A stretch of DNA of 49,028 nucleotides, taken from Nemertoderma westbladi (taxonomy: Eukaryota > Animalia > Xenacoelomorpha). The stretch's first letter is position 1. Each line of letters begins with the position of its first letter. The stretch covers positions 1-49,028 of the forward strand of contig JAUCBJ010006521.1 in assembly GCA_032718475.1 (NCBI GenBank). The letters run 5' to 3'. The translations under genes were made by a program, and so were the position numbers. Below are positions 4,820 to 48,978 of the stretch, one piece after another. Under the pieces are notes generated by a model. That model was not told the DNA's origin and did not search any database. It worked only from the letters and a program-made list of their open reading frames with translations.

Positions 4820-5956
4820 TTACGTGTCATCGTTATTCAGCATCTCATTGAGTTCATCTTCCCACCCCAGGGTGTCCTCGACCCCGCCTTCGTCTACGAC
4901 CTCGAACTCCTGCAGTTCCTTCTGCAACTCAGTTTCCCAATCCTCGGCGGCCATCCCGAGCTGTTTCCGCTCCTCCTCCACCGAATCTACCGCCGGGGTG
5001 TCGTACAGGTCGCTAGCGAACTCTGTAGGCGAGGCCGGACGTGGTGGAGATCCCATCGCGGAATCCCGACCATCTACTGATCGGTTTATATCCTCCGATA
5101 GCTGTTTTTCCCCGGCGATTACGGATTTCATTATTTCACCTTTCTTTATTTCCCCGGTTATTTGCTTTATTTCACCGGACGAGCTGTTTCTATCCCCTTC
5201 CGGGTTTATTTCCCCGGTATCTCCAGTCTCGGACGCCAGAGTGGTCAGCTGCGAGGATTGCTTGACCAACGAGACTCTGTAGAAATAATTGCACCAAAAC
5301 TGTTCCTCTGAGATCCGTTGTGGGACCAACTTGAAGCGAAGTTGGCTGAGTCGAGGATCCTCGGAGAGCATCACCGTGGCAACAGGGTAAACAGAAGATA
5401 AATTAAAATGGAATTCTGAAGCGGGCGGGGGGCTTCGCAGAAGATTTCTTTCGTCTTTTGTGAGACTGAGTATTTGGGATCGCATAGAATCCTCCTCTTG
5501 GTACCCGACCCACGGCGCTATCGCAGTCTCCGTGTGTCGTTGCGGCCCCCGAGACTCTACGAACTTGCTTTGCTCCTGCGAGAAATCTCCCAGGATTGTG
5601 TTGTCGTGAAGGGCCGCTTTAAACACTTTGGTTGTGCTGGATAGACCCTTCTTGGCGTGCGAGGCGACCCCTGATAGGTAACTACCCCAAACTCCAGGCG
5701 AACCCAACTCTCCGATAATACCGGTAGTCGCTGCCGTTGGTTTCGATTCCTCGTCTATCGCTTCATTCTGTCCGGGTTCGCTCGGTTTAGATGGACACTC
5801 AACGGTTGCGGTGTCTTCAATTTTCCCGCTTTCGTTCGACGCGAGATCGCTGGTACCGGTACAGGTAGCGCGTTTATTTACGTTCCCGGTACTGGTACTG
5901 TTAGGCCTACCGGTACTACCCACCAGCCAACTTCCTAGTTGTGAAAACGTTTCCAT
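4820..5956 (-). CDS. SYAP1: Synapse-associated protein 1 / Sap47 (BSD domain), single-exon CDS
   Basis: 378-aa ORF with BSD motif DPRLSQLRFKLVPQRISEEQFWCNYFYRVSLVKQS, upstream APWVGY...ILSLTKDERNLLRSPP, and C-terminal DWETELQKELQEFEVV...WEDELNEML. Confidence 0.92.
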   Translation of the reverse strand: METFSQLGSWLVGSTGRPNSTSTGNVNKRATCTGTSDLASNESGKIEDTATVECPSKPSEPGQNEAIDEESKPTAATTGIIGELGSPGVWGSYLSGVASHAKKGLSSTTKVFKAALHDNTILGDFSQEQSKFVESRGPQRHTETAIAPWVGYQEEDSMRSQILSLTKDERNLLRSPPPASEFHFNLSSVYPVATVMLSEDPRLSQLRFKLVPQRISEEQFWCNYFYRVSLVKQSSQLTTLASETGDTGEINPEGDRNSSSGEIKQITGEIKKGEIMKSVIAGEKQLSEDINRSVDGRDSAMGSPPRPASPTEFASDLYDTPAVDSVEEERKQLGMAAEDWETELQKELQEFEVVDEGGVEDTLGWEDELNEMLNNDDT

Positions 5957-6580
5957 AAACCAGTAAACAGGTGCCCGGTAAACATATAAACAAATAAAGT
6001 ATTAATGAATATTGCAAAATTATATGGCCAGCTGTACAGCTGGTATAGCTGGTATAGGCTTTTCTCTGTTCAGCTGTTTCTCGTCTGTCAGGTGTCTTGT
6101 CTGCTAGTCATTCGGTGCTGCTATCCGGTTGTTGCCTCCCTACTGCCCTACATCACTGGTACTTCTGGTGTGAAAGAAACTTGCTGTCAAGTGTCAAGTC
6201 AATTTTAGCTAACTCGTGCGAACGACTTATGCCTACTTTTTGGTCGTACAAACGACTGGTACTACTTACTGTGTTGGTACTACTGTACTTACAAACTTAC
6301 CTATATATTGTATGTAAACCCACACACTCCTTCAAATTCCTCAACTCCAATTATACATTACGACCAAGGTATACTAAATAACAGGTTATTTAGTATACCT
6401 TGATTACGACCCTTGCAACACGAGTGTGGGACTTCGCACAGCTCAAGTCTATGAGCCTCTTTGCGTAGCAGTAAAAATAGTGGACCTATAGCGGTTGATA
6501 GAGATCGCGGTTATCATGAGGGTTTTTGTTCTAGAACAACTATTTGACCTTCTGTCAGTAAGATGGTACTACCATCTACC

Positions 6581-6661
6581 AAAGTACTAGCTAACACAAA
6601 AACAAAATTACTAGCTACCATTGGTAGCTAGTAATTTTGTGTTTGTGTTAGCCAGTACTTT
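6581..6661. repeat. Near-perfect ~80-bp palindrome, probably part of an old MITE
   Basis: AAAGTACTAGCTAACACAAAAACAAAATTACTAGCTACCA-T-TGGTAGCTAGTAATTTTGTGTTTGTGTTAGCCAGTACTTT; CTAGCTACCA sub-repeats recur through ~7100-8035. Confidence 0.8.
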
Positions 6662-7147
6662 TTATAAGATATAAAAAATAAAACCTATTTAGAACATCAA
6701 ACACAACTATGTGTTTGTGTGTTATAAGTTCTAGATTCAAAATGCTGTAGTTATTTACTGTATCAAAATTGATAGCTAACAAGTGTTCTATAACATTTAT
6801 AAAAAAAATTAGCAACAACTATCTACTGTCTGTAAAAAATCTGGTCAATGGGTAGGGTACCCAAAGGTGTACTTTACTAATGCCGTACAGTATGTTTGGT
6901 TAATTGATCGAAAACGTAATACCTGTAAATCACAAGATATAACTTTGCTATAGGCCTATACTGTAGGTATCATCACTACACCTTACATGCATGCACACAA
7001 AATCTGGATTTTTTAACGTGTATTTTTTATGCGGCTTTTTGGTTTTAATTATTGTTCTAGAACATAGTTGGACCTTCCCACAATATTATGGTAGCTATTA
7101 AATATTTTAATGGTAGCTAGTGATTTATGAAAATATTGCAAATAATA

Positions 7148-7542
7148 CACCATGTCCCGTAATATAGTGTCATTTTCTGATGACACGGACATTCAGATAT
7201 TCAGATTCAGATACGATTCAGTATGATTCAGATATTGTTACATATTTGGAATCCTTGCAACGCAAGCTTTTTAATGATATAAAAATATAATATAAATTAC
7301 CACTAATGTGAAGAATGGCAATGATACAGAGGGTGCGATTTTGCAAAAGACACTTTTTTAAAACTCTTATAAAAAATTTAAAGGCAAAATCGAAAATTCC
7401 GGCTTCATGGGGTCATCGACGGTGAGTGGAACTACTGTAGTTATGTTTCAAATTTCAAGCATTATGATAAAGATTTGTAGAAAAATCTGGGGGGGGTCCG
7501 TGTCATCAGAAAATGACACTACATATATTACGGGACATGGTG
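7148..7542. mobile_element. Tc1/mariner-like MITE (TA flanks)
   Basis: TIR CACCATGTCCCGTAATATAGTGTCATTTTCTGATGACACGGAC is mirrored at the right end, with TA on both sides. The interior matches ~17000-17308. Confidence 0.88.
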
Positions 7543-8166
7543 TAATTGAGTACTTTTCTTGTAGTGAATTATACAGTAAATCACAGGTTTTTATGCTGCC
7601 ATAACTTATAATGTTTCACATAAAAATTAAATTTTTTTGTATTTTCTAAAAACACTACCTAGTAAAAAAAACACAAGCTACCATAAAAAAATGTATCTAC
7701 TATGGTACTAGAACATTCACCATTATCAAAACACCAGTCAAAAAAGGCAAAAAAATCTCAAAAAACTGTGTGCTATAGTAGAAAAGTACCAATAATTGTA
7801 AAATCAAATATTTGGTATTTTTATTTTCTGTAAACCAGCAAAAATATGAATGTGTTGTGTTTTTTTATCGTTATTTCTAATTAACAGTTCTAGAACATAT
7901 TTTAGCAAACTTATTTGTAGCTAGTACTAATTAATTTAGAAATAATAAAAGTACCAAATATTTGATTTTATAATTTATTATTGTTTGCGAAATTTTCATA
8001 AAACACTAGCTACCAAAAAAAATCACTAGCTACCATAAAAACATATCTACCACTATGGTAAAGAAAAAAAAGTCTTAATTAGACATTAATAAACCATTTA
8101 AAACACGCATTTAAAAAATACTGATTTGATGTACATATGCGGTAGTGATACCGGCCTATAATTTGT

Positions 8167-8360
8167 GGGTGTAAACACTATGCCGACAACCGACATCCAC
8201 TGCCGACAACAGCAAATGTGATCGTTTATTGTTTTGGTTAGAATAACCTTCTACTGTAACCTGTTCCTTTCCTTCAATTAATAAATAACATTAATTAGCT
8301 TTAATAGTGGTTGTCGGCGTTGGTTGTCGGTAGTCGGTTGTCGGCGTAGCGTTTACACCC
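8167..8360. mobile_element. MULE-type MITE with 9-bp TSD
   Basis: TIR GGGTGTAAAC...GCCGACAACCGAC / GTCGGTTGTCGGC...GTTTACACCC; exact TSD ATAATTTGT at 8158-8166 and 8361-8369. Confidence 0.9.
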
Positions 8361-8660
8361 ATAATTTGTGACATTTTTCAAAATAAGTTTCAAGAAAAAA
8401 TATATCATTAATCTACTGTAGAACATGTTATTTTAGTTTGTTTAAAAAACTAAATAACTAAGCTTTTTGAACAAAAATAATTAGAAAAGGTATCCTTTAC
8501 ACAGTACTGTGTAGGGGGTGGGGTGTAGGCCTACCTAATATAACACGGTATCAGTACCATATTTGCGTGGCTGACAAACTCGAGGATGTGGAATTAAATT
8601 AGCTTATTTTTCTTTAAGGATTTTAAAACGTATACAATATCGAGATAATTGTCACTCGAA

Positions 8661-10175
8661 ATGTCGTCAGAAAACGACACTCCACACGCGAAATCCGGTG
8701 TCCTTAACAAACACTTCTGCTTCTTTTGTGACAAAATTTTACAAAAACCTTGTCAAGTTATATGTGGACACATATTTTGCGAAGCATGTCTCAAAAACTA
8801 CTTCGACACTTGTAGGGACAGGTTCTTGCTTTGTCCCCTTTGTCATGTGGAGATTCAAAGAGGAATATCGTTTCGCGATATAAGCACTGAAAAGGATATT
8901 CAAACCCTTCGTTTACAATGCAAAAACACTGACAAAGGTTGTAAGTTCACTGGGAATATCAATCAAGTTTCTGAGCATTTTAACAACCAGTGCGAACATG
9001 GGTGTATAGAATGCCCTATAGGGTGTGGGGTCACGATTGTAAGGAAGGAACTGGTGGCTCATAAAAGGTTGTGTAAATATCGACCGGATAGATGCATCTA
9101 TTGTAAAAATATGGTCAGACTGTTTGAGATATCACAGCATCATGAAATCTGCCCTCAGTATCCTATGGATTGCCCGAATAGCTGTGGTTTAGTGGGAATA
9201 TCCAGGAATCACTTGAGTGGTCATCTTAACGCGTGTCCGTTAACTACGACACCGTGCGAATATATCGTTGTAGGTTGTAAATTTAAAGGGACATCATCGG
9301 ATATGCTTAATCACATGCTGGAGAAGGTTGTGGAACACCAAGCTATGATGACCAGCAAGTTTTCTTCTATGTCAACTACTTTGGAAGAAGTATCCACCAG
9401 TCACGCAAATCTTGAAACTAAAGTTGGTCATTTGATGAGGTCACTTGCTTCCTTGATTAATGATTTCAGAGGAAATTGTTCAACTTGTGCTACAAATTTA
9501 GACAGCCATGTTAAACTTGATGAGTTTGCGCTAGTGAAGAGAGACCTTCATCTTTTAAGGTCAACTGAAGGATATGAAGCTGCATGTTCTCAACAACATC
9601 TTGAAAATGATGACAAGAAAGACGAGCAGTTGACAAATATTGAGTGTAAATTATCTGAGCAAGGTGCTCAGATAAAATTATTTGAAGAGCGTGCTACTAA
9701 AGGAGTCCTTTTAATGAAAATAGCCGATTTTCAAAGGAAGATTTTGCCTGAAGCTAAAGAAGGAAAGGTATTGAGTATAGATTCGGAACCCTTCTATACG
9801 TCTATGTATGGATACAAAATGTGTGTTAAGTTCTACCCCAATGGGTATGGTATTGGTAAAGGTAAAGGTTTTCTTTCTGTCTATATCGTTTTAATGAAAG
9901 GTGAATATGATAACATATTACAGTGGCCATTTAAACAAAAGATTAGTGTAACTTTAATTGATCAAGGCAAGAGAGGAAGACATATCCTGGAAACGTTCAC
10001 TCCCGATGGTCATGGCTTGAGTTTTCAGAAACCGCAAAATGATCTGAATGTCGCTTGTGGATTCCCTAAGTTCGCTCCTCACAAAATATTATTACAGAAA
10101 GGCAATGAGTATTTGAAAGATGATAAAATTGTCCTTCAAGTTGCAGTTACTGAAACCAAAGACAGATTAGATTGA
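8661..10175 (+). CDS. TNF receptor-associated factor (RING, TRAF zinc fingers, coiled coil, MATH), single-exon CDS
   Basis: RING CFFC...CGHIFCEAC...CPLC, TRAF-type Zn fingers, and MATH motifs SEPFYTSMYGYKMC and LSVYIVLMKGEYDNILQWPFKQK. First ATG is at 8661 (the track uses an upstream TTG). Paralog identity not assignable by eye. Confidence 0.93.
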   Translation: MSSENDTPHAKSGVLNKHFCFFCDKILQKPCQVICGHIFCEACLKNYFDTCRDRFLLCPLCHVEIQRGISFRDISTEKDIQTLRLQCKNTDKGCKFTGNINQVSEHFNNQCEHGCIECPIGCGVTIVRKELVAHKRLCKYRPDRCIYCKNMVRLFEISQHHEICPQYPMDCPNSCGLVGISRNHLSGHLNACPLTTTPCEYIVVGCKFKGTSSDMLNHMLEKVVEHQAMMTSKFSSMSTTLEEVSTSHANLETKVGHLMRSLASLINDFRGNCSTCATNLDSHVKLDEFALVKRDLHLLRSTEGYEAACSQQHLENDDKKDEQLTNIECKLSEQGAQIKLFEERATKGVLLMKIADFQRKILPEAKEGKVLSIDSEPFYTSMYGYKMCVKFYPNGYGIGKGKGFLSVYIVLMKGEYDNILQWPFKQKISVTLIDQGKRGRHILETFTPDGHGLSFQKPQNDLNVACGFPKFAPHKILLQKGNEYLKDDKIVLQVAVTETKDRLD

Positions 10176-10371
10176 TTATTTTATTGTAACTGGATGTACA
10201 GTATTATTGATCATTCTATAATGGAGAGTAAATTTTTATAAGTTGATGAATTATAATCTGTAATAAATACTAGTTTGTTCAATGCAATTTTTTCATTCAT
10301 TTACAGTATACACAGTATGAATACATATACAAATTTAATAAATGAGAAAGAAACAGTGTATCTTTACCATT

Positions 10372-10548
10372 TATCTATCTATAATCGGTATGCTGCATTT
10401 GCAGCTGCGTTAAGAATGCTATACCTGCTTAAAACAAACTTGCGCTCATAAAACGACCTATCAGTGCTATCATCCATGACTCTCGTGAGATTATCCGCAT
10501 CTTCAAGGCCAGTGTCCTATACGAGACGTCTCAAGAAATTCATGGGCT
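10372..10548 (-). mobile_element. 3' fragment of the RTE-like LINE family
   Basis: Reverse complement resembles ~26610-26770 (AGCCCATGA...CTTGAGACG...AGGACACTGGCCTT...GCATTCTTAA...GCAGCTGC). Confidence 0.8.
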
Positions 10549-10549
10549 A

Positions 10550-10752
10550 TAAATTACTTTCCGGTTTTCCGGTTTGAATTTCCCGGTTCCTGGTAGGGCG
10601 AAATTTGGACAGGCCATTCATTGGTTACTTTAGTAATTACATTCAAATAAAGGTATAATTGGCTGTTTTCCCAATACCATAACAAATTAATGGCCTGTAC
10701 AAATCTCGCCCTACAAAGGTACCGGGAAATTCATACTTCCAGAAATTAATTT
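10550..10752. repeat. Inverted-repeat element (MITE-like), followed by GGTCGACC sub-repeats to ~10810
   Basis: TGAATTTCCCGGT..GTAGGGCGAAATTTGGACAGGCCATT is mirrored by AATGGCCTGTACAAATCTCGCCCTAC..ACCGGGAAATTCA. Confidence 0.7.
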
Positions 10753-12094
10753 ATGGTCGACCAAAAATTAATAATTTATGGTCGACCTTAAGTTAATTTT
10801 TGGTCGACCATGATGAACTTATGAAAAAAAATTGAAAAAAAAAATTTATTATTTGGCAAAGATCAGCCTCCGTATAGTACAGATCCTTTCCTCCAAAAAG
10901 TTTACATATTTGCATTCGTGTCGCATACTAAAGTTATCGGCGCAAATGAGCGCAAATGTTCACCCCGTTGAACATTTGCGATAGGGCCTACCGCAATTGT
11001 GTACCACAAATATTACATACCAAAAATATTTGCCTTTGTACTTTATTGAATTATCGCTTCAGTAGGCCTATATGTATTTGCACAAAAGCGGGATTTTTAA
11101 ATATGTGCAGTGTTTTGCGTTACTGTACCGGTACTCCGTCAATACAATACTGCCTGACGACGACGGCCTCCTGTAAAGAGTCCGAAATATAACAAAAACG
11201 AGCTGTTTTTTCTATTTTCTCCTCATCTGCCCATCCATTGTTCGTTTTAATCACTTATATAACATTATTGTCATAATATTTTTATCAGTGCTGCGCTGCT
11301 TGAATTAAGATGTTTTAAACTGTTAAATAATCCTGTTTTAAACTAACACCCCCTGAAGTGAATTTCAAATCAATTTATTGTGGCGGTAATTTTAAAATAG
11401 TAATCGAACAGTCAGCTACAATAATTATTATTATTATTTCCGTGTCCGTGTTTGAGTGTGGAGCACTGGGTGGAGGTAGGCAGGTACAGAGGTAGGCGTA
11501 GGGGCTTGGGCTTACCGCTACCGGTACCAGTGCCTGTACACCCGTACTGTGTACTAGTGCACATCAGTACAAATAAATATATTACTGCAGTACTCTGGAA
11601 CGTGTTAATGTTATTTACAGATTTATAAATAGATAAAATATGAATAAGTAAATAGTTATTTATGCTGGCTGGATTCCAGATTCTGCCTTATGCTATTTAA
11701 GTGGAATTCCCCGTACCGCCCTGCAGCCGTAGCATGTCATGGAATATTGAAATTGAAATGGGCATTATCATTAAAATTTGGGGACGTTAATATTAGGCCC
11801 TAGTGCTAGTAGGCTATCATTAGAATAGAACCGCGTTGTAATTCTACAAAATCAAGTGCTTGTACAATAAACTCAAACTGATAAACAGATAAATTGGGTG
11901 CTCGTATGGAATAGTTATTATAAATAATATAATTTGCAATACTATTACCGGTAATACAGTAATTGTGAATAGTAAGAATAATAACGGACAGCTGGCTGTC
12001 TTTGTTTTAGCTTAGTTCAGTAGTTAAGTACAATTACCGTACTCTTCCATACTTGCAGGTTGCAGCTCAAAAGTAATCCAGAACTAGTTTCATT

Positions 12095-13675
12095 ATGAGC
12101 GGTACCGGTAAATTGAAAGCGCTTATCATTCAAACATTCAAACTTAATGGTTTATCTTTGAAACCGGACGCGGTGACTCTCCTCCAACACTCGCTGTCTC
12201 GAGTATCGTCGAGCGACTACGAGTCGAGTTTGGATCGAATAATCGACGCGGTAATAAAGTCGGAACCTGCGACTCCAATAATCGACGTGAATACTGTTGA
12301 ATCGGCGGTCCGGGAATGCAACACGGAAGCGGAGGAGGATATCGATTCCGTATTCAACGTTATCAACCTATTCGACGTTCCGCACTACGTCTACCATCAG
12401 GATCGCAAAAAATTTATCCTTTCCTCGGAATCCGAACGCCCAGTGCCGTCGAATTCAGTTTTTCCGGACGCAGATTCGAAAACCGACGCTATTGTTGAGA
12501 AGTACACGATGATCCGACAACGAGTCGAGCGACACCCAGAGTTGATTTCAGACGCGGATCGAAGTGAATTGAAACCAGTCGAGTTCCTATTAGGCAGCTC
12601 CTCGGGTGCGGTCACTGGGCGACACAAGATTGCGTTGCTAGGGGTGTTGACGCGGGGCCGGACCGGTAAACCCTGCCTGGAGGACCCAACCGGAACTGTG
12701 GAGTTGGATCTCTCCGAAACCGAAGTCGGGAAAGGTCTCTACACCGACGGATGTTTCGTGATAATCCGTGGAATCTATATCGACGGGACCCTAAAGGCCT
12801 CCAGTCTGTCTCTCCCTCCTATAGAAACCTCGCAGACATCGCGAACCTACGCTGGGAACATTAACTTCTTTGGAGGTCCTTCGCGTTACGCTGTTAAATC
12901 CTCTAGTAAACTGGCGGAGATGGAGTCGGAATTCCGGGAAGCTATGTTCGTTATCGTTTCGGACGTCTGGCTCGACGACCCTACCGTGATGCTCCGACTA
13001 AACTCGATGTTCGCTGGATTTGAATCGTCGCCTCCCGTAGCTTTTATTCTATGCGGCCCCTTTACTTCCCGCTGGTACGGATCCGAACACGTTAACAAAC
13101 TCAAAAACTCACTAAAAGATTTACAAACGACTCTACTGAGGTATCCCAACCTGGTTGCGACATCGCGTTTGGTTTTTGTTCCTTCATCTCGCGATCCGGG
13201 TTTAACGAACCTCCTCCCTCGCCCCGCGTTGTTCGACTCCGTCACCTCGGAGTTTCGCTCCCGTCTCCCCCACGCAGTGTTCGCGAGTAACCCGGCCCGC
13301 ATCCAGTACTGCACCCACGAGATTGTCGTATTCCGCGAGGACCTCGTCTCCAAGTGTCTCCGGAACTGTATGCGTCTCCCGCGGGAGCAATACGGTACCG
13401 TCCCGCAGCACCTGTCGCACACACTGCTGTCCCAATCTCATTTAATCCCTTTGTCCCTCTCCGTGTCCCCCACTTACTGGTCCTACAACCACTCACTCTC
13501 CCTCTACCCACTTCCCGACCTGGTTGTCATTGCCGATCGCTACAACGGTTTCTCTGTCGACAGCCACGGCGCCAAGGTCGTTAATCCGGGATCCTTCCCA
13601 TGTAACAACTTCGCCTTTAAGGTTTATTATCCGGCTAGTCGACAGATTGAGGACAGCGAAATACCGCCTCCATAA
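12095..13675 (+). CDS. POLE2: DNA polymerase epsilon subunit 2, single-exon CDS
   Basis: 526-aa ORF with N-terminal FKLNGL domain, LEDPTGTVELDLS, FVIVSDVWLD, FVPSSRDPG, NPARIQYCTHEIVVFREDL, LYPLPDLVVIAD and NPGSF...FKVYYP. Confidence 0.97.
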   Translation: MSGTGKLKALIIQTFKLNGLSLKPDAVTLLQHSLSRVSSSDYESSLDRIIDAVIKSEPATPIIDVNTVESAVRECNTEAEEDIDSVFNVINLFDVPHYVYHQDRKKFILSSESERPVPSNSVFPDADSKTDAIVEKYTMIRQRVERHPELISDADRSELKPVEFLLGSSSGAVTGRHKIALLGVLTRGRTGKPCLEDPTGTVELDLSETEVGKGLYTDGCFVIIRGIYIDGTLKASSLSLPPIETSQTSRTYAGNINFFGGPSRYAVKSSSKLAEMESEFREAMFVIVSDVWLDDPTVMLRLNSMFAGFESSPPVAFILCGPFTSRWYGSEHVNKLKNSLKDLQTTLLRYPNLVATSRLVFVPSSRDPGLTNLLPRPALFDSVTSEFRSRLPHAVFASNPARIQYCTHEIVVFREDLVSKCLRNCMRLPREQYGTVPQHLSHTLLSQSHLIPLSLSVSPTYWSYNHSLSLYPLPDLVVIADRYNGFSVDSHGAKVVNPGSFPCNNFAFKVYYPASRQIEDSEIPPP

Positions 13676-14989: not shown

Positions 14990-16490
14990 GTATAATAATG
15001 TGGCAAGTACTCAGGATAAATCACAACTGATTGTAAATAAATTGGTTGTTAATTACACTGAAAGCGATGTTTATTTGGGGGTGCCATTTACGTCGGACGG
15101 GAAAGTGGCTTTTGGTACTTTTGGCACTTTGGCGCAGCACCAATTAAAGTGTGGAGATACAGTTACGTGTGTTAATACTAGCCTACCGTTTGTTGTTAAT
15201 ACTAGCCTACCGTTTGTTGTTAATACTAGCCTACCGTTTGTTGTTAAAACTAGCCTACCGTTTGTTGTTAATACTAGCCTACCGTTTGTTGTTAATACTA
15301 GCCTACCGTTTGTTGTTAATACTAGCCTACCGTTTGTTGTTAATACTAGCCTACCGTTTGTTGTTAATACTAGCCTACCGTTTGTTGTTAATACTAGCCT
15401 ACCGTTTGTTGTTAATACTAGCCTACCGTTTGTTGTTAATACTAGTCTACCGTTTGTTGTTAATACTAGCCTACCGTTTGTTGTTAATACTAGCCTATCG
15501 TATTGTTAATACTAGCCTACCTTTTGTTGTTAATACTAGCCTACCGTTTGTTGTTAATACTAGCCTACCGTTTGTTGTTAATACTAGCCTGCCGTTTGTT
15601 GTTAAAACTAGCCTACCGTTTCTTGTTAATACTAGCCTACCGTTTTATTTAAAGAAACGTGTTTTCGACGCGGCAGTAATGTCCGCATTATTATATGGAT
15701 GTGAGTCATGGTTGACGGGTAACACTGCCCAGTTAGAAAGATTTCATATTAAGATGGTGAAAGGGCTCCTCGGTGCGAGAAGTCAAACACACACAGATGT
15801 TTGATTAATAGAATTAGTGGCTCCGACATTAAACAGTTAGTGGCTCGTGCGAGGAAACGTTTCATGTCTAAAATACTTAAAAATATAGATTCGGAAATCA
15901 ATTCAAGTTTTCAATTTGTGTAAATGAAGTAATACGCCCGGGTACAAAATGTTAATGGAGGCTTACAATAGTGATAGTGTTGATTCGCTTACTGATAGTA
16001 GGAACCGTATTGTTATAAATAAACCATTAAGTGCTACAAAATTTGCGACTTACCGTAGGGATTTTAATGAGAAATTAGTTCAGTTTCCAATATACGGAAC
16101 CATAATAATGTGCCAGATTATTTGAGGATGTGGTTTACTAGGGTAAGGTTAATGTCTCATAATTAAGGTAGACAATGGTAGGTGGTCTAGGATTAGTAGA
16201 AACAGACGTGTGTGTGAGTGTGACAAGGAGGCTGTTAAACAGAGGCACATGTATTACTTTATGTATTACTGTATGTTAGATATTAGTTCGTTAATTAAGT
16301 ACATTATTTTACTGTAAACAGAGAGACTATTACATACTGTGCAAGTATATTCTTGACGTTATAGAATTATATCAAACGTAACAAACAATATGTTTTTCTT
16401 TTAGTGAGACCAAATTGTGCTTTAACAACATTTAAATAGGTATAATAAAATTAATTTGTATATTTCCTTTGGCTATGAAAATATAAATGA
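14990..16490 (+). mobile_element. 3' part of a second non-LTR retrotransposon family, degenerate
   Basis: VYLGVPFTSDG (late RT motif), KKRVFDAAVMSALLYGCESW, then RVRLMSHN...GRWSRI...RRVCECD typical of LINE ORF2 C-termini; multiple stops. Confidence 0.75.
15171..15645. repeat. 24-bp minisatellite (GTTAATACTAGCCTACCGTTTGTT), about 20 copies, inside the LINE ORF
   Basis: Directly visible; translates as (VNTSLPFV)n. Confidence 0.97.
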
Positions 16491-22225: not shown

Positions 22226-24472
22226 ATGGATTCAACATCAAATTCACTTCCCAACTGGCCAGTTGGAATTGATCAGGACCACGGCATTGGTTCTCCTCCG
22301 CATCCAATACCGCAATCACCAGTGGATCACGAAGAAGGCATTGCATCTCCACCACAAAAATCACTTGGATCACCAGTAGATCAAGATGATCCACAAGAAT
22401 CACCTGGATCAACATTGGTCAAGGAAGATGGTAATCAATCAACATCTCCGATACAAAAATCACCTGGATCACCAGTGGATCAAGAAGAGGGTATTGCATC
22501 TCCGCTGCAAGAATCACCTGGATCACCACAAGCTCATGAAATCATGGGCTCTCCAGAGGAATCTCCCCCACTATATTCCCCAGTTTATGATTTGGAGGGC
22601 AGTCCAATTTCTCCTCAAGAATCACCAGAATCTACAGAACAATCACCAGAATCTCCACAACAATCACCTGAATCTCCACAACAATCACCAGAATCTCCAC
22701 AACAATCACCAGAATATCCTCACCAATCACCGGAATTTCCACAACAATCACCAGAATCTCACAAGGACAGCTCCCCAGAAAGGCCGCCTATTTATTCGCC
22801 TATTGGAGAAACCCGCTTCCAATATGATCAAACACATGACGACGAACAGCCTACGGACGCCATTATAGAAGCAGAAGGTATGGGGAGTCCGATTTCCCAG
22901 GACTTTTCTTCCCAAGACTCAGATAAAGTAGGGGATTCGGGAGTTCCGATGTCTCCCATATCTCCAGTTGCTGAAGATATAGAAGTGGAAGGAGATGATG
23001 ATGGCGATAATAAAGATAATAATCTTGAACAGTTAATAGAAGAAACTGTGGAGATGGAACCTGATGGACCAGATATTGAAATAGCTATGAAAGAAGAAAC
23101 TGAATCATTGCACGCGGTCGATGTTACAGATATCGACCGATCCAATGATGTTGCCGTTCACTCTAAACTTACCGAGAATGGAAATGACGACGATATGGAG
23201 GGAGAAACCCACGAGGTTGTCCCGGAAACCACCGGCTCAGACGACGAGTTTTCGTCTCGTCGAGCCAAACGTAAACGCGGAATAAGTTCGTCTGACGAAG
23301 GCGAAACCGCGGAGGATTCTAAACAGAAACAGAGCCGAGTTGCGCCTGGCGAGGAGGAGGAGGTTGATAAACCAGCGGGGACCGAGTTGGAAGCCGAGGA
23401 AGATAACCTCGACGATGACAAACTCTTTAGTTCCGACGACGACGGAGATGATAACGCTAAACATCAGGAAGTCGGTGAACTCATCGCGGACATATTCGGG
23501 GACAGCGACAACGAGGGAGAGCGAGATGAGGACGATGCCAAACCTATTGTAAAGGCGAAACGTTCTGACTCTGAGAGCGAAACCGACCTCTCGCATCTTT
23601 CCGACTTCGATAGAATGATGATGAAGAAGAAGGAGCAGCAGAGCGCATCGAGAAGACGCCGTCGGAAGGGAGACGGTGACCTAATAAACGACAACGACGA
23701 TCTTATAGCCTCGATGTTGCGACGGATGAGTGCGGTGGCTGCCGAGGACCGCGAAGCGAATGCGAACAAACAGGCGGCCACCCGGAAGATCAAACTCTAC
23801 CCATCGGTGATCGCTCAGCTCAACAAGTCGGACCTCCGGGGTTACCTACTGGACGCGGGATTGTTGAAGTACATGTCGGATTGGTTGAACCCGTTGCCGG
23901 ATCGGAGTCTGCCGCACGTAACGATCCGTTCCGGTTTCCTTGGGATCCTCGCGCAGATGAACTACGTAGACGCGGATCTACTGAAAACTAGTGGAATTGG
24001 TAAATCTGTTATGTACCTCTACAAGCACCCAAAGGAGACGCGAGATAATAAGATCCTAGCGGGGCGGATTATAAACAACTGGTCGCGGCCGATTTTCGGT
24101 GTTGAGATCGATTACAACTCGCTGTCTAAAGAGGAGCGAGAAGAACGCGACATCGCACAGAAGAAGCGTCGCTCTTCGGTTAGTCTGACCCCGTCGATGG
24201 GAACCGCGTTGGATGCTCCTAGCTCGTCCCACGTTGCCAAGCAGCAGAAAGAGATCCCCCGAGCGCGTGTCCCTGTTCCCTCCACTCGGGATTACATCGT
24301 GCGACCCCGGTGGAATCTCGATTCAGATCTCGCGAAGCGCTCCGTTCGGAAACGCGATCGCGATGTGCGTTTCCAGAAACACATCCGCGCACTACGAACT
24401 GTGCGCTCCTCGAAAACCGACAAGGAACACGCAGTTACTATTAGTATCGAGGGGAATAAAATGCGTTTGTGA
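22226..24472 (+). CDS. IWS1: Transcription elongation factor IWS1/Spn1, single-exon CDS
   Basis: 748-aa ORF with TFIIS-N-like core (WLNPLPDRSLP, LKTSGIGKSVMYLYKHPKET, INNWSRPIF), RARVPVPSTRDYIVRP and terminal ISIEGNKM; long SP-rich and acidic N-terminus. Confidence 0.95.
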   Translation: MDSTSNSLPNWPVGIDQDHGIGSPPHPIPQSPVDHEEGIASPPQKSLGSPVDQDDPQESPGSTLVKEDGNQSTSPIQKSPGSPVDQEEGIASPLQESPGSPQAHEIMGSPEESPPLYSPVYDLEGSPISPQESPESTEQSPESPQQSPESPQQSPESPQQSPEYPHQSPEFPQQSPESHKDSSPERPPIYSPIGETRFQYDQTHDDEQPTDAIIEAEGMGSPISQDFSSQDSDKVGDSGVPMSPISPVAEDIEVEGDDDGDNKDNNLEQLIEETVEMEPDGPDIEIAMKEETESLHAVDVTDIDRSNDVAVHSKLTENGNDDDMEGETHEVVPETTGSDDEFSSRRAKRKRGISSSDEGETAEDSKQKQSRVAPGEEEEVDKPAGTELEAEEDNLDDDKLFSSDDDGDDNAKHQEVGELIADIFGDSDNEGERDEDDAKPIVKAKRSDSESETDLSHLSDFDRMMMKKKEQQSASRRRRRKGDGDLINDNDDLIASMLRRMSAVAAEDREANANKQAATRKIKLYPSVIAQLNKSDLRGYLLDAGLLKYMSDWLNPLPDRSLPHVTIRSGFLGILAQMNYVDADLLKTSGIGKSVMYLYKHPKETRDNKILAGRIINNWSRPIFGVEIDYNSLSKEEREERDIAQKKRRSSVSLTPSMGTALDAPSSSHVAKQQKEIPRARVPVPSTRDYIVRPRWNLDSDLAKRSVRKRDRDVRFQKHIRALRTVRSSKTDKEHAVTISIEGNKMRL

Positions 24473-25731: not shown

Positions 25732-26076
25732 AGCTATACAACGAATACTTCCCAACCGTGGTTTTTTTTCAGAAAATTCCAAATTCAAATTACACAGGTT
25801 CAAGATAGTGCGGGTGGGGCGGAATGAACGCAAATTCGATCTCGGCAAATTCATATCTCGTTTCAATGTTAAATTATCAAGTAAAGAAAAGGAACAGGTT
25901 ACAGTGACAAATTAATCTATCCATAACAATAAACGAAAGTCAATAGCATTGGTTATAGTTTCATTTTTATGGTAATCAGCTGTTATTTGCGTCTATTTTC
26001 CCCTGGAGAAGGTGGAATTTTGAATGCGTCTCGCACCACCACCCCCCCCCCCCCCCCCCTCCCCCTCCCCTTTATC

Positions 26077-26787
26077 AAATTCTGACAGTTAACTTTGAAA
26101 GTCCTCAGCAAGTCTCTGATCGGATGAGCATAAGCTCAAAGGATGGTATACTTGAGCATGTGGACGACTTCTGTTACCTGGGATCATGGATCCGGAAGTC
26201 AGGTGAGGACCTTCGAATACGTAAGGGAAAGGCATGGGCAGCCTTGAATAGGCTTTCCAGGATTTGGAAGTCACCTAGAATTAATCGGAAACTTAAGGTC
26301 CGATTATTTAGAGCAGCAGTAGTTCCAGTACTCCTCTACGGGAGTCCATGCTGGGCTCTAACTGCTGAGGACACCAAATCTCTGGATGGCACATTCACAA
26401 GAATGCTACGCCGGGTACATTGTGTCAAGTACAATGCACACATCTCCAACCAGACACTATATAACATTGGAGGTGTCTCATTGGTTCCCCCAAGCTTGAC
26501 ACTAGAACAAAATCGCCTCCGCTTTGCAGGACATTGCTTTCGCCGTGAGGACCAGCCAGTGCATAATCTTGTACTTTGGCAGCCTCATGGAGTGAATAAG
26601 CATGGTGGACAGCCCATGACTTTCTTGAGACGCATCTTAAAGGACACTGGCCTTAAAGATGCGGATGATCTAGCAAATGTCATGGGTGATAGGGAGTTGT
26701 GGCGGTGCAATTTTGTTGACAAGCCGGCACAGCATTCTTAAAAATGCAGCTGCTATGCAGCATGCCGATCCTAGTAGTAGTAGTAGT
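26077..26787 (+). mobile_element. 5'-truncated RTE-like LINE with open ORF2 tail, (TAG)n tail and probable TSD
   Basis: VDDFCYLGSWI, KVRLFRAAVVPVLLYGSPCW, RLRFAGHCFR; ends in CCTAGTAGTAGTAGT; flanks CCCCTCCCCTTT(T)ATC at ~26062 and ~26788. Confidence 0.92.
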
Positions 26788-29882: not shown

Positions 29883-30716
29883 TCAGTTACTGCAATGAGG
29901 TAAATACCCCCGGCAATTGAGTTCCCTACACAAACACGCGGTGGCGCTGAGATTCTGACCACCATCTCCATGGCTGTAATCATACGAGAGTTCCTCGAGA
30001 TGGTTGATATCGCGAACAGCGAATAAAGCAAACCGCGGAACCATGCAACCTACCCGCACAGGAACCACTCGTAGGTTCGGGGCACAGCTGTGGTTTATGT
30101 ACCGCGCGTGGTTGCTATGGATACTAGTGGCATCTACCTTAGTGACAGACCATAGCCTGTTGTCGTGAGTATATTCCCGAACAATCAGTTTGTAATTGGA
30201 TTGGGAACGAGTTTGTTCAATAGGAGCAGGTAATAATGTTCCATTGTGAGTGGTCAGTTCAATTGACGATGTATTATCACCTAACTCGTTATTATCCAGG
30301 TCCTCTATCGATGTTGAATTCCCAATGGCCTCCTGATTGGTCAGTTTTATCGTACTTGTAACACCACTGTACTCACATACGAATTGTCCCTCATGTATAT
30401 GAGTCAAAGTTATCAAACCGAACCCCTTCCCTTGGGTTTCGACGATTTCAAGAGAAGAGTCGATCGTACGCCCCGTAGCGACCACATTGTTTTTGCAGCC
30501 GACACAACCACAACGCTCGGTGCACTCAAATATGGGGCTGTCTGGGGTGGGTATGCGTAAAGCGCCATCTAGCGTGTAGGACGAGTAATTAGTTCCTGAA
30601 AGGGAGGAACACGGGCAGCCAATCAAACAGCCCGTATCTTGGCAACAACACTCTTGGTCTATTAACTCCATATCGAAGTTTAACTCAACACCTTCGTTTT
30701 CAATATTATAAGACAT
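29883..30716 (-). CDS. SETMAR-type histone lysine methyltransferase (pre-SET, SET, post-SET; no transposase), single-exon CDS
   Basis: Pre-SET cysteines (PIFECTERCGC..CKNNVV), GKGFGL, GQFVCEYSG, ARYINHSCAPNL..VPVRV, EELSYDY and post-SET CLCRELNCRGYLP. First ATG is at 30716. Confidence 0.9.
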   Translation of the reverse strand: MSYNIENEGVELNFDMELIDQECCCQDTGCLIGCPCSSLSGTNYSSYTLDGALRIPTPDSPIFECTERCGCVGCKNNVVATGRTIDSSLEIVETQGKGFGLITLTHIHEGQFVCEYSGVTSTIKLTNQEAIGNSTSIEDLDNNELGDNTSSIELTTHNGTLLPAPIEQTRSQSNYKLIVREYTHDNRLWSVTKVDATSIHSNHARYINHSCAPNLRVVPVRVGCMVPRFALFAVRDINHLEELSYDYSHGDGGQNLSATACLCRELNCRGYLPHCSN

Positions 30717-32987: not shown

Positions 32988-33479
<492 letters not shown>

Positions 33480-40462: not shown

Positions 40463-42755
40463 CCCTAGTAGCACATAACGTTCACACACAGCTTTTGGAC
40501 GTTGAGAACAACCATTCCACTCCATAAACGTCGCACATACTGTACGACATTTAAACGTTCTAAATTAGTCTCCATATAATAACGCCTAAATGGTGTTGGT
40601 GTTTCAACTGAAAAGTAACGTTCATTAATGGTATCAGTTAATTTCCCGTTAATGTTCTTGGACGTTTGAATGGCATCCAAAGCAATAACCAGTTCAATTT
40701 GAGTTCAGAAACTGAAAAGTAACGATTTGTAAATGGCAAGTTATATTTCCGTTAGCTATTGTGAACGTTTGAATAATGTTTATAATCCAATAAAAATTAA
40801 CCAGTTCAATTTCAGTTCAGATATTTTTAAAATTGTCGTTCAAAAAATGTCCAAACTATGTTTTTCATAACCGTAGTTCAATAGCGGTTCAATACTAAAC
40901 ATTTTCCGTACAAAGTAATAATTATCTGAACGACAAACTTTCCCACGCTATGGGAACCAGTGTCTGTGATGAGTCAGCCAATTACAGGCAATACTGGAAC
41001 TGCCCAAGTACTGAATGATGTAAAATAGTGGTATATTGGTTCATACAGAACTCAGGAGCAAAAGTATACAGTAGTAGGTACTGTATAACGGTGTGTAATA
41101 CAACATTAATTTTTGTTGCGTCTCAATTATTTTCTGTATATTTTTATAACGGCATGGGGCACATACGTCATGGGGTACATACATTCAATACGTGAACAGT
41201 GCGAAGATCGAGGTCAATCTTGTGATGCCTTTCAACCGTATCGGGACCAATAATAAAGGGCCGCCATCCATCAAAGACACTAAAGGTAATTATTTAAAAT
41301 TTAATTATTAGTTAATAATTTTATTTCTAGTCGAATATATGACAGAACTTTAGACAGTTAGAGTTATTAGCTTTAAAATATGGAATTTAATATATCACAT
41401 GAGCGGTACCGGTACTGCATGTAATTGAATTCGAAGATTGTTGTAATAAACATATACGGTTAATGCAAAAAAATATGATTGAATAAATATAAATTTTTTA
41501 AATTGATCCAATTTACCGATCAGCCTGCTTATGGCACAGCGGTAAATTAAATACTTAAAATCTTTGGTTGAATCTCTCAAGTTTATAATGCGGTATGTAA
41601 GTATCTATCTCTTTATAACAAAAATTCGTTCCACCGCCATGCAACCTACAATTGGCTTACTGTGAAGCAGCATGCAATGAATGATATGCCAGGTTATATA
41701 CAAAATTCCACCGCCGCTATTCCCTATCCCCATAATTATCAGCATCTCCAAGGCCAATATCCTTTAAGAGGCGTCTTAAGAAAGTCAGAAAGCGCAAGAT
41801 TGCGCACAGACTCACTGGTACTCACGGCGAAAGCAATGTCCTGCAAAGCGGAGGCGGCATATATATTATATGTATATTTATAGTATAGGCCCTACATGTC
41901 TGTATAAATGAGCATCTCATTAGAAAGATTCAGTTTCATATTTGTGCAAGTCTATACAGTTTATAAAAGTATAGGCATACTAACAGTATATCACTTGAAG
42001 TAAAAGTGACTTATACAACATGCTATTCATTAGGTTTAATCATATAATTGGCTCCTTCCTTTTTTTGAAGTAAAGTAGTGCATAAAATGTTTCTTTTAAA
42101 TTTTTTATTTTTAAATAAGGTTTATTTTTGTTACAGCTGGGAAAGGCTATTTATTATGGACGGAGTGAGTGTGGGGATTCGACTAGCTACAAAATTCAAG
42201 AGAAAAGAAGGAATGCTACCCAGAGAAAGATATCATTACACAGTACTCCAACTCTGTATAATTAACTCTAGACTTATCTATTTTACTTTTACCTTAATGA
42301 TATATTATGTATTTCCTATTTGATTTATCTCTTTGTTATATTTATTTCCATGTTTCTCATGTTCGGTAAATTCGGTATATTTGTGATAAAAGTAAGTAGG
42401 GGTAATATTCAATATAAACTTGTGGTCTTATTTCAACAAGCAAATGTTTGTTTTCATGTTCAGTTGATTTACTTTTGCTGCAGTCCTGCAGTACACAAAT
42501 CGTTAGGAAGGAAGCATTATTGAACCTTTTCAAAACAATATTAAGCCGTTCAAAATGAGTTCGGTAAATAATTAGTTGAACGGACCATTTTAGAACGAAT
42601 ATCTAACGTTTATAAGATGACGTCGAATCAACGTTTTTTGAGCGGGACAAATCCCTTCCTAGATGAACGTGTACAGTGAACGCACCTGGAACGTTATCAG
42701 AACAACGTTATCCACATTATTAGAACTATTCTAAACGTGAGGTGAACGTTGGTGT

Positions 42756-43984
42756 GGGGCGAGACACGTAGTCGGCGAGCCTTGGCATACGGTTCATATA
42801 GGGTAAATGGGGCATGTCCGTCTGTCTGTCCGTCCGTCTGTCTGGTAAATGTTTGAACGCGAATTTCTCGGCATCGCTGGTTCGGAATTGAACCAAACTT
42901 AGTAGGCAAGTAGTAGAGAGAAAGTTTAGAAAGTTTGTAAAGTTTGGTGAAAAATCATGCAGTCTGACGTCAGCTACGACAGATTATGTGGTTTTTAGAA
43001 AATGTTAAATTTCTCGGGAAGGCCTCATTTTCCTGAGCTGAAATTTTGGTGGCCTGTAGAGAATCATGAAGTCTATCTTTTACGAAATTGAAAAGTTAAG
43101 ACATTTAATTGGGGATCCGCTAGAGACTCAGAAGTAATGACATAGGCCTACCGGTACGGTACTGCTGTACAGTGCTGCACTGGTAAGTACAAAATTGCAG
43201 AATAACACGTTCGTGGGGACTTCGCGCAGCACGTAGTCGGCAAGCCTTGGCATACGGTTCATATAGAGCAAATGGGGCATGTCTAGTTTGGACCCCATAT
43301 CCCATGCTATAAATGTATTCATTCGATATACAATCATATGTTAATCCGCTAGGTGGTGTCAAATTGTTATTCTGCAATTTCGTACTTACCAGTGCAGCAC
43401 TGTACAGCAGTACCGTACCGGTAGGCCTATGTCATTACTTCTGAGTCTCTAGCGGATCCCCAATTAAATGTCTTAACTTTTCAATTTCGTAAAAGATAGA
43501 CTTCATGATTCTCTACAGGCCACCAAAATTTCAGCTCAGGAAAATGAGGCCTTCCCGAGAAATTTAACATTTTCTAAAAACCACATAATCTGTCGTAGCT
43601 GACGTCAGACTGCATGATTTTTCACCAAACTTTACAAACTTTCTAAACTTTCTCTCTACTACTTACCTACTAAGTTTGGTTCAATTCCGAACCAGCGATG
43701 CCGAGAAATTCGCGTTCAAACATTTACCAGACAGACGGACAGACAGACAGACGGACAGACGGACATGCCCCATTTGCCCTATATGAACCGTATGCCAAGG
43801 CTCGCCGACTACGTGTCTCGCCCCACAATTTGACACCACCTAGCGGATTAACATATGATTGTATATCGAATGAATACATTTATAGCATGGGATATGGGGT
43901 CCAAACTAGACATGCCCCATTTGCTCTATATGAACCGTATGCCAAGGCTTGCCGACTACGTGCTGCGCGAAGTCCCCACGAACG
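42756..43984 (+). mobile_element. ~0.6-kb element (outer copy) interrupted by an inverted copy of itself
   Basis: 42756-43204 plus 43828-43984 reconstitute one element with ~55-bp subterminal inverted repeats and a (GTCY)n microsatellite; TGT on both flanks. Confidence 0.9.
43208..43824 (-). mobile_element. Inner full-length copy (617 bp) in opposite orientation
   Basis: Near-identical reverse complement of the outer copy; flanked by ACA at 43205-43207 and 43825-43827. Confidence 0.92.
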
Positions 43985-44285
43985 TGTTGGCCTACTAGGG
44001 TTATGCGAAAGGGAGCTGTGGTTCTGAATTCCTTTTAGTTCGTTTCAGTTAGTCTTTTAGTTAGTATCGTTGTTTTTGTTTCAGAGGGGGAGGTGTTATA
44101 TTGACCCCCCCCCCGGGTTTAAGGGAATACTGGAAACTTCACATGCTGACATAGGCAGAAACTTCAGTACGCAGAAGTTACGTTACGTAACTTACGTTGT
44201 ACTTACGTTGTACGTTGTACTTTCCTATGAGTGACTGTAAAAGCCTATATATGATAGCCCACTCCAAAGTGAATAAATCTTCTAC

Positions 44286-46234: not shown

Positions 46235-46284
46235 GTAAGTAATTTAACATTGTCAGATTGATCGATTGATAATTTAATTAACAG
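46235..46284 (+). other. Candidate 50-nt 5'-UTR intron of TTLL7
   Basis: AG|GTAAGT consensus donor and TTTAATTAACAG acceptor, 184 nt upstream of the ATG; no transcript evidence. Confidence 0.4.
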
Positions 46285-46467
46285 AGGATACTACTGTAGG
46301 TACTAATAATAAATACAAATATCAGAATATAGTCATTTCCTGAGATATACCAGTATACTGAGCAGCTGACTGGCTGAGTGGACATCTGATATCAGGATAA
46401 CGTATTTAATAATCAATCTAACTAACTATATTCTGATATTACTAGCCCCACATGATCTGATGATACG

Positions 46468-48978
46468 ATGCCGAACCCACAATCTATCGATGTATATAGT
46501 AAACTACCAGACACCAAACCACCTGATGGTAAGTTTAAACCACTAACGGAAAGCGTCGCCTCAAACGGCAGCAGCAGGTTTAACCGCTTATCTGAATCAG
46601 AAATCGAGGAGTCGCTTCCAACAAGAAACTCCCCATCCATTTATAGCAGAATGTTCCCAACAACGACAACATCTACGAAACCACCGGGCAACAAATTGCG
46701 TCGGCAATCAGCCATCATGGTGCATATCGCCGGGACCCGTTACGATGTTGTAAAGGAAGTCGCAGAGGAGATGGGATTCCGTACCACGGTCCTCGATAAG
46801 GATCTCACCGAGTGTTTCATTATTTGGAGCGACGCCTGCGTCCAAACCGAAGTGATATCCTCCTTAAAATCCTTCCAGCGTATTAACCACTTCCCGGGAA
46901 TGGGTGAGATTTGTCGGAAAGATTTTTTGGCGCGAAATTTAAGCAAAATGGCTCGTAAATTCCCCGACGAGTATAAATTCAGCCCCAAAACCTGGATCTT
47001 ACCCGCGGATTATACGAACTTACAGAATTACATCCAGGATTTGAAAGCAAAACGTAAAACTAAAACGTTTATAATAAAACCCTGCAACGGCTCTATGGGC
47101 CACGGGATTCAACTGTTCCGCAATTTGGATAAAATTCCCCACGACGAGATGAACGTAGTCCAGGAATACCTCGACAAGCCGCTCCTAATCGACGGTTACA
47201 AGTTCGACCTTCGCGTCTACGTCGTCATGACTTCATGCGACCCGTTACGGGCGTTCCTCTACAACGACGGGCTGGTGCGACTCAGTACGGAACCTTACGC
47301 CACGCCCTCCGAGGCCAACCTAGCCCGCAGCTGCATGCATCTAACCAACTACTCGCTCAACAAGTTCAGCGACAACTTTATCCGCAGCGAGGACATCGAC
47401 AAAGGAAGCAAGCGATCTATTAAGTACCTAATGGAATATTTATCCGATAAAGGTTTCGATGTGGATAAACTCTGGGCCGATATAAAGTCGGTTCTGGTGA
47501 AAACGTTATTGGTGGCGGAGCCGCACGTGTTGCACGGATACCGAGGCTGTCGTCCCGGGCAACCGCCCAACGCCCAGTCCGTCTGCTTCGAGGTCCTCGG
47601 CTTCGATATCTTCCTCGACCGCCGGTTGAAGCCTCATCTTATCGAGATAAACCGCGCACCGAGTTTCGGAACGGATTCACGAATCGACTACGATATAAAG
47701 AGCGGAATCCTCAGGGATTCCTTCCGACTGCTGCGCGTCCGGCCTTCCGATCGCCGGAAGAGCATCGCCTTGGATAAAGCGGAGAGTCAACGACGCCTCC
47801 ATCCCGCGGGCGAGTCCGGGAAAAAGTTATCCCGTCGACGTCGCGAGATTAACGACGAGTTATCGCGAGTTCGAAGAGAGAAACTCCGGTTCGAGTTCGA
47901 GAATCGGAACCTCGGTAACTTCCAGCGGCTGTTCCCGACGGAGGTCGAGGGATTAGCGAGTCGATACGAGGAGTTGATGAGGTTCGCCTTCCTCTCGACG
48001 CTCTCGGGAGGCCGATCCGTCGCGTTGCACAAGGACTACGCGACCGTCGCCACGAACAAACAGCGGGAGGAGGAGTTACTCCAGTTGCTGGAGGAGTGCG
48101 AGTTGGATGAGTCGAACGAGTCGTCACGGCCTAAACCGCTGTCGTCGATGCCTCCAGCGGAGACGCCCAGTCGTCGGAACGCTGAGACGACGACGGACGA
48201 GGAAGAGGAGCCCCGAAAACCGGTGGAGCGACGGAGACGATCGGGTTTGCTTCCGGCAACCCGGAGGATAGTCGCCCCCCGGAAGCCGCCGCCGGCGCGT
48301 CTCGCGTTCCCGCTGCGGAACCAGAACCTCCAGATGGGCGCGGAACGGAGCGGCGCGGAACGGAACGGGGACGACGATGAACGGATACGCGACGCGCTCT
48401 CGGCGCTCAACTCGCTGCGGATTAAATACCCCGGACGGGGCGACGTGGAGGCGGCCGATCGGCTCTGCGAGATAACCGCCAACTGGGGCTTCCATAAACC
48501 CCGGGTCGGCGCCTATTGGCTGGTTAAACTGGACGCGGTAAAACGGCGCCGCTTATTGGACATCGTCCAGGACAACGCGAGAGAGGTTGTTCGTAAAGTT
48601 TGGATGGTTAGCGAACCGGTGACGGTGCCGTTGTGGATGGCCGTCGTTAAAGTAATCAATCGGTTGCTATGGAACCACGGACAGGGTCTGTGGGCGGCCT
48701 TCGACCCCGGTACGGGAGACTCTGTCTGGGAGTCCACGCTGCTCAGGGATAAGACGCCCCCTAACGGAGTCACCCTGGACTGCTGTAGACGGGTGGTGCA
48801 GCTCGCCAAGGACTGTCTGCTGACAGTCTACCAGCTGTCCCTAGAGACCCGACCCCGTACAGACTCAATGGCCCAGACCGTGGTCCCCATTAGCTTCCCC
48901 AGCCCCTCCAGTTTGGCGCCTCTCAGCCAACGACTCATGAGAATCTACGGCAGAGAAGTTCCTTCGTATGCAAAGTAA
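46468..48978 (+). CDS. TTLL7: Tubulin polyglutamylase TTLL7-like, single-exon CDS
   Basis: 836 aa: QRINHFPGMGEICRKD, KFDLRVY, MHLTNYSLNK, VCFEVLGFDI..IEINRAPSFGTD..IDYD, and C-terminal NRLLWNHGQGLW characteristic of TTLL7. Confidence 0.92.
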   Translation: MPNPQSIDVYSKLPDTKPPDGKFKPLTESVASNGSSRFNRLSESEIEESLPTRNSPSIYSRMFPTTTTSTKPPGNKLRRQSAIMVHIAGTRYDVVKEVAEEMGFRTTVLDKDLTECFIIWSDACVQTEVISSLKSFQRINHFPGMGEICRKDFLARNLSKMARKFPDEYKFSPKTWILPADYTNLQNYIQDLKAKRKTKTFIIKPCNGSMGHGIQLFRNLDKIPHDEMNVVQEYLDKPLLIDGYKFDLRVYVVMTSCDPLRAFLYNDGLVRLSTEPYATPSEANLARSCMHLTNYSLNKFSDNFIRSEDIDKGSKRSIKYLMEYLSDKGFDVDKLWADIKSVLVKTLLVAEPHVLHGYRGCRPGQPPNAQSVCFEVLGFDIFLDRRLKPHLIEINRAPSFGTDSRIDYDIKSGILRDSFRLLRVRPSDRRKSIALDKAESQRRLHPAGESGKKLSRRRREINDELSRVRREKLRFEFENRNLGNFQRLFPTEVEGLASRYEELMRFAFLSTLSGGRSVALHKDYATVATNKQREEELLQLLEECELDESNESSRPKPLSSMPPAETPSRRNAETTTDEEEEPRKPVERRRRSGLLPATRRIVAPRKPPPARLAFPLRNQNLQMGAERSGAERNGDDDERIRDALSALNSLRIKYPGRGDVEAADRLCEITANWGFHKPRVGAYWLVKLDAVKRRRLLDIVQDNAREVVRKVWMVSEPVTVPLWMAVVKVINRLLWNHGQGLWAAFDPGTGDSVWESTLLRDKTPPNGVTLDCCRRVVQLAKDCLLTVYQLSLETRPRTDSMAQTVVPISFPSPSSLAPLSQRLMRIYGREVPSYAK

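Follow-up and report, generated by a model that had tools for sequence, protein, structure and literature searches.

Why should a series of ancient animal genes, set among kilobases of repeats, hold no introns at all? The question is raised by a stretch of 49,028 nucleotides from the nemertodermatid Nemertoderma westbladi (contig JAUCBJ010006521.1 of assembly GCA_032718475.1), the whole of which is here called the window. It contains seven intron-free genes (SYAP1, TRAF, POLE2, IWS1, a SETMAR-like SET gene, TMEM50 and TTLL7) and one interrupted, BHMT-like gene. An earlier note, made from the letters alone, had described seven of seven complete genes as intronless and proposed lineage-wide intron loss, possibly mediated by reverse transcriptase (RT) and decoupled from genome compaction; its count holds for the seven genes named and breaks at the eighth, which stops after 133 codons. 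The explanation that we favour, and consider somewhat probable, is a mosaic genome that has had a large proportion of its ancestrally multi-intron genes replaced whole by reverse-transcribed spliced mRNA, while others keep large introns.

All seven genes are single stop-free open reading frames (ORFs) with the expected Pfam domains (BSD, TRAF/MATH, DNA polymerase epsilon B, TFIIS-helical, pre-SET/SET, UPF0220 and TTL). The human counterparts of five are multi-exonic, with about 19 exons in POLE2, 21 in TTLL7, 14 in IWS1, 9 in SYAP1 and 7 in TMEM50. The claim that all seven ORFs are apparently full-length stands for POLE2, TMEM50, IWS1 and TTLL7, which align nearly end to end with their homologs, and does not extend to SET: its match begins at residue 20 versus residue 59 of 3bo5, and 14 codons 5' of the ATG the frame is closed by a stop, so this gene is without part of the N-terminus. 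POLE2 (526 amino acids) is 47% identical to the Saccoglossus protein at 99% query coverage and differs from nine animal homologs only by a deletion of nine and an insertion of four amino acids, therefore no intron is concealed in frame. Residues 60-836 of TTLL7 are 96% covered by Saccoglossus, the alignment reaching the C-terminus, with six indels of 5-10 amino acids relative to six homologs, and TMEM50 shows 99-100% coverage for most of the 120 matches listed (identity up to 75%). IWS1 residues 52-747 align with human residues 98-820; in its N-terminus, Ser-Pro-rich tandem repeats (22393-22764; units of 60 and 21 bases) replace the human SDSE-type repeats. The TRAF protein has RING-region, zinc-finger and MATH matches, TRAF3 being the best, and the identity of SYAP1 was checked via the BSD domain alone. 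A Pfam search of the 95 other frames of at least 62 amino acids gave no credible hidden exon, the matches being to repeats, a retrotransposon and, weakly, integrases, and an exact-sequence lookup in a protein collection matched none of the seven window proteins.

The window is present in five sequencing runs of the source organism, from three studies, and reads were examined for six genes (SYAP1, TRAF, POLE2, IWS1, SET and TMEM50). The intron-free form of all six is carried, together with its flanks, by DNA runs of two studies: unbroken DNA contigs span the coding sequence (CDS) of SYAP1 in runs X1 to X3, of POLE2 in X2 and X3, of SET and TMEM50 in X1 and X2, and of TRAF in X1, and IWS1 is present in X1 and X2 as two contig pieces 13 bases apart. 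A further run, X4, is catalogued as 'DNA?' yet is RNA-like, with a depth of 1480-3230 over SYAP1, POLE2, IWS1 and TMEM50 versus 0-70 in most unique spacers. The X4 contigs are colinear with SYAP1, POLE2, SET and TMEM50 (five of 1629 letters differ from the window in POLE2), and IWS1, covered by several contig pieces with gaps of 31-35 bases, is followed after 24658 by 20 untemplated A at a place where the genome has no A run. No joint within a CDS occurs among the stronger joints listed for X4, the weaker ones beyond these numbering 250 and 390, and five of the six genes are colinearly covered as apparent transcripts with intact ORFs. Because the intron-free form is found in DNA runs and the RNA-like coverage is colinear with it, the genes whose X4 coverage exceeds that of the spacers are expressed genes, neither cDNA contamination nor dead pseudogenes. 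No near-identical second copy of the genes was seen in the run contigs, and the unbroken DNA contigs disfavour a near-identical intron-bearing parent, and with it a young retrocopy cluster; diverged parent copies may exist elsewhere. TRAF differs from its neighbours in several respects: its depth in X4 (36-67) is not above that of spacers, its CDS is AT-rich (GC content at third positions, GC3, 0.36; CpG observed/expected 0.67), and in X2 and X3 the region 7000-11430 is covered 10-50 times as deeply as POLE2, in X1 about equally. It is possibly copy-number-variable or transposon-carried.

Table 1. Features of the window (X1 to X3, DNA runs; X4, RNA-like run; LINE, long interspersed nuclear element; UTR, untranslated region)
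Feature	Position	Strand	Remarks
BHMT-like, 5' part, 133 codons	371..772	-	followed by a long intron or truncation
SYAP1-like CDS (BSD domain), one exon	4820..5956	-	X4 contig 4209-6171 colinear
TRAF CDS, one exon, AT-rich third positions	8661..10175	+	closest to TRAF3; raised depth in X2 and X3
Pyrimidine tract + CAG, candidate trans-splice or UTR acceptor	12040..12058	+	X4 contig begins at 12059
POLE2 CDS, one exon	12095..13675	+	one X4 contig, 12059-13687
Second, diverged LINE 3' fragment	15649..15831	+	weak, E 0.025
IWS1 CDS, one exon	22226..24472	+	untemplated poly-A in X4 beyond 24658
3' end of very abundant LINE	26074..26760	+	related fragments near 10384, 14452, 16491, 39821-40462, 41678-41856
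SETMAR-like pre-SET/SET CDS, one exon, no transposase, short N-terminus	29883..30716	-	X4 contig 29775-30916
TMEM50 CDS, one exon	32988..33470	-	X4 contig 32783-33520 starts at G of CCAG
TTLL7 CDS, one exon of 2511 bases	46468..48978	+	ORF and protein alignment

In the mosaic genome that we favour, the RT of a LINE would copy spliced mRNA in the germ line, and the cDNA would either recombine with the original locus or insert elsewhere, the parent then being lost; gene conversion in place and retroposition with parent loss are both described as cDNA routes (PMC4256211, PMC7738191, PMC3548309). Between the two we lean, tentatively and very slightly, towards conversion in place. The loss appears to have been whole-gene, all-or-none and near-precise, as both cDNA routes predict, and the few short indels of POLE2 and TTLL7 are in line with precise loss. 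Repeat-swollen introns might make an intron-free version cheaper, and spliced-leader trans-splicing could conceivably provide such copies with a clean 5' end. A LINE is a plausible source of RT, because the summed depth of the element at 26074-26760 in X1 is 2.2 million versus 31 at IWS1 (about 70,000-fold) and it is also deep in RNA-like X4 (61,763), both being rough measures and not copy numbers. The element, which we take to be RTE-like from its motifs, has abundant 3' ends in the genome and in the RNA-like run; no intact RT lies in the window. Of the three local LINE families claimed at first reading, two were found, one abundant with several 3' fragments and one weak, and no third in the window.

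Poly-A remnants and target-site duplications are absent, as the earlier note had stated: across the seven genes, no AAAAAAA run lies less than 272 bases from any stop, and the only flanking repeats are AT-rich 10-11-mers at two of the seven. The absence of these traces points to old events or to conversion in place. A cluster of young processed pseudogenes was considered and rejected; neither genomic poly-A nor target-site duplications were found (the IWS1 poly-A is not in the DNA), and the ORFs, rather than being disabled or silent, are stop-free and, in five of the six genes examined, covered by RNA-like contigs. The observed/expected ratio of CpG is 1.1-1.4 in five of the seven CDSs versus 0.84 in sampled spacers, and GC3 climbs toward the 3' end in SYAP1, POLE2, IWS1 and TTLL7. 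In grasses, exons adjoining lost introns are GC- and CG-richer (PMC4256211), and the pattern seen here is a hint at most.

Two transcript starts are candidate trans-splice acceptors. The X4 contig of POLE2 begins right after a pyrimidine tract and CAG, the depth upstream being nearly nil (332.5 observed versus 331.5 expected from that contig alone), and no joint to an upstream exon is among the joints listed in X4; the TMEM50 contig begins at the G of CCAG (33520, minus strand), with a depth of 138 beyond it versus 2969, and the two starts are one base apart in register. UTR introns or plain start sites are the alternatives. In the acoel Symsagittifera 30% of the genes are trans-spliced (PMC9911081). 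A search for a spliced-leader relic with the Symsagittifera leader core gave no match at three mismatches, and the leader of this lineage may differ; likewise, upstream of the genes nothing beyond AT-rich or palindromic 12-mers is shared. Two palindromes are enriched within 500 bases upstream of the ATGs, AGGCCT with eight of its 21 non-coding copies (2.2 expected) and TAGGCCTA with five of 13; both are candidate promoter elements, chosen from the same data, which makes their p-values circular.

The description of the genes as set apart by kilobases of repeats proved accurate: the seven CDSs make up 21% of the window and self-repeated sequence 30%, and the spacers of 1.9-13 kb are filled with satellites and dispersed repeats. 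Animal introns usually occupy about as much sequence as spacers (PMC5534336), in contrast to the seven CDSs here, which hold no introns. A streamlined genome of the type of the mite Aculops was rejected on these proportions of coding and self-repeated sequence. Among the repeats, a 2.2-kb satellite of GTAATGGTTACAGAACCAAGTAGA-like units lies between BHMT and SYAP1 (1519-3761), and an 85-base unit forms two oppositely oriented arrays (17516-18282 and 19506-21131) with outer flanks common to both, which together resemble a transposon whose long tandem inverted ends enclose about 1.2 kb. A high-copy element of 670 bases stands in inverted orientation, at 79% identity, on either side (26884-27552 and 31688-32366) of the SET gene and of a decayed, integrase-like sequence (28403-28769; weak Pfam match PF24764). 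A long near-perfect inverted repeat, MITE-like (miniature inverted-repeat transposable element) or foldback-like, was recognized by eye at 42750-44000 (about 42760-43220 versus 43340-43830).

How far does this condition extend beyond the window? With a background of 17-21% single-exon genes, seven of seven has a p of about 4e-6 to 2e-5, with 45% a p of 0.004, and with 84% intronless genes a p of 0.3; such values overstate the surprise, since a short window that contains many whole genes tends to favour intron-free ones. Published figures for N. westbladi are 3.28 exons per gene and 59.7% repeats, with RTE LINEs at 7.4%; in a 62-Mb short-read assembly (N50 4 kb) 76.8% of BUSCO genes are present, with 1.5 exons per gene and mostly single-exon models (PMC10565955). 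The short-read figures fit many compact core genes, and also fragmentation; an exon table is absent from the five supplementary files of that paper at hand ('exon' occurs in none of them). Published acoelomorph genomes have means of 3.3-6.4 exons per gene and about 60% repeats (PMC10565955), the genome of Symsagittifera, of about 1 Gb, 3.2 introns per gene, and Xenoturbella a mean of 8.5 exons, with 2532 single-exon genes of about 15,000 (PMC11521371). In view of these acoelomorph means, lineage-wide intron loss survives only in a partial, gene-by-gene form, and a genome-wide absence of introns is unlikely. Apart from these low exon means, no report of intron loss in acoelomorphs was found in the literature searched, mainly open-access, and the available portions of PMC13125763, PMC12104807 and PMC5648526 hold nothing on gene structure.

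Among the rival explanations, the one that survives best, unlikely as it is, supposes a local island: the region gathered old retrogenes, their parents lost or diverged, or lost introns regionally, the genome at large being ordinarily intron-bearing. The selection of short genes by any window with seven whole genes and the raised depth of the TRAF region in X2 and X3 would suit an island, whereas the seven functions are unrelated, their orientation is mixed, and the acoelomorph exon counts in print are low. Distinctly less probable is the loss of introns singly, by precise deletion from the genome or by the repair of double-strand breaks, along a long, fast-evolving branch and with no cDNA step; it would have to account for an all-or-none result in which, by human counts, about 18-20 introns are gone from each of POLE2 and TTLL7 with few indels. 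The branch of POLE2 is indeed long (1.45 versus a median of 0.25 in a quick-search tree of 35 rows, with 34 named homologs picked from 120), and the available text of the Aculops paper (PMC7738191) leaves such a route standing. Near-total genome-wide loss as in Aculops, without compaction, is the strong form of the first proposal and appears very improbable: seven of seven would be unsurprising under it, and the short-read models are mostly single-exon, but 3.28 exons per gene are in print (PMC10565955) and the BHMT-like gene is broken. That the contig belongs to some intron-poor organism sequenced alongside, or arose as an artefact of amplification or cDNA, is already largely refuted, for although no protein match exceeds 75% identity and wild microscopic animals bring contaminants (PMC10565955), the window occurs in five runs from three studies, intergenic DNA and CDS stand on the same DNA contigs, and the LINE of the window has million-fold summed depth in those runs.

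Several observations weigh against the mosaic genome. All window-based evidence comes from one window, the multi-intron ancestry of these genes is presumed from general background, and TRAF and SET make weak examples. The window itself may derive from one of the DNA runs, leaving at least one other study. Without poly-A, target-site trace or spliced-leader relic there is no direct mark of the RT step; of the proposed RT-mediated loss decoupled from compaction, what stands is its agreement with intact, RNA-supported genes that lack introns and appear to be single-copy, in a repeat-rich genome where a LINE abounds. The POLE2 tree of 35 rows gave no supported placement or group. Fragmentation can yield the figure of 1.5 exons, some of the BUSCOs counted as 'present' may be fragments, and the authors call the gene architecture comparable to that of acoels (PMC10565955). 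Finally, the eighth gene is interrupted. Its ORF stops at codon 133, where homologs run on into a conserved EQ-x-x-WA motif; when this continuation was profiled from 26 of 150 homologs, no match to it was found in the window, and the ORF end offers weak splice donor candidates only. Either a long intron runs off the left end of the window or the gene is truncated. The observations that bear on a 5' bias of surviving introns are the acceptor-like starts before POLE2 and TMEM50 and this break, which is not at the 5'-most position.

If the mosaic genome is real, it would be a rare instance in which whole genes were heavily stripped of introns and the genome did not shrink. The decoupling is unsurprising as such, because intron number does not track genome size over 590 eukaryotes (R2 0.002; PMC11649378); the all-or-none scale would be the surprising part. 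Intron positions and microsynteny may then mislead in the dispute on the placement of acoelomorphs. A bolder reading, which we regard as doubtful, is that nemertodermatids have a two-class gene architecture undescribed in animals, in which LINE RT rewrote at least half of the ancient housekeeping genes, using each gene's own mRNA, with spliced-leader trans-splicing as an aid and the cost of introns swollen by satellites as the driving force, in a genome that grew, as an animal parallel to the gene recycling of dinoflagellates.

Comparison with known systems, as the available portions of the papers describe them, shows where the window stands. RT-mediated intron loss (Zhu and Niu 2013, PMC3652778; Wang et al. 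2014, PMC4256211) would share the precise loss of many adjacent introns and RT from retroelements, but comprises rare events of single or few introns and not whole CDSs of neighbouring genes. Orphan retrogenes (Ciomborowska et al., PMC3548309) are likewise functional intron-free copies whose parent is not seen; they number 25 in human, whereas seven lie side by side here and relocation is only a candidate. The mode seems to resemble both, and membership in either would hang on synteny. The acoelomorph genomes (PMC10565955, PMC9911081) are similarly repeat-rich with low mean exon counts, which in the text at hand are not treated as intron loss and come with no intron-free core genes named. Mass retroposition in dinoflagellates (PMC6050394) has large genomes, many orphan retrogenes and an implicated role of trans-splicing as shared features, and is marked by spliced-leader relics, of which the Symsagittifera leader revealed none here. 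Aculops lycopersici (PMC7738191) is an animal with wholly intron-free conserved genes, precise loss and the same two candidate routes, but in a genome of 32.5 Mb with few transposons, a median intergenic distance of 538 bp and 84% intronless genes, unlike the repeat-filled spacers and the likely mixed genome found here. In that mite, the extreme animal case in the literature consulted, intron loss goes with a tiny genome and is confounded with compaction, whereas in a large, LINE-rich genome containing stripped as well as intron-bearing genes the RT model could be put to the test one gene at a time, against Xenoturbella, a slow-evolving relative that has kept introns and linkage groups, by germ-line expression, mRNA length, 5' bias and synteny.

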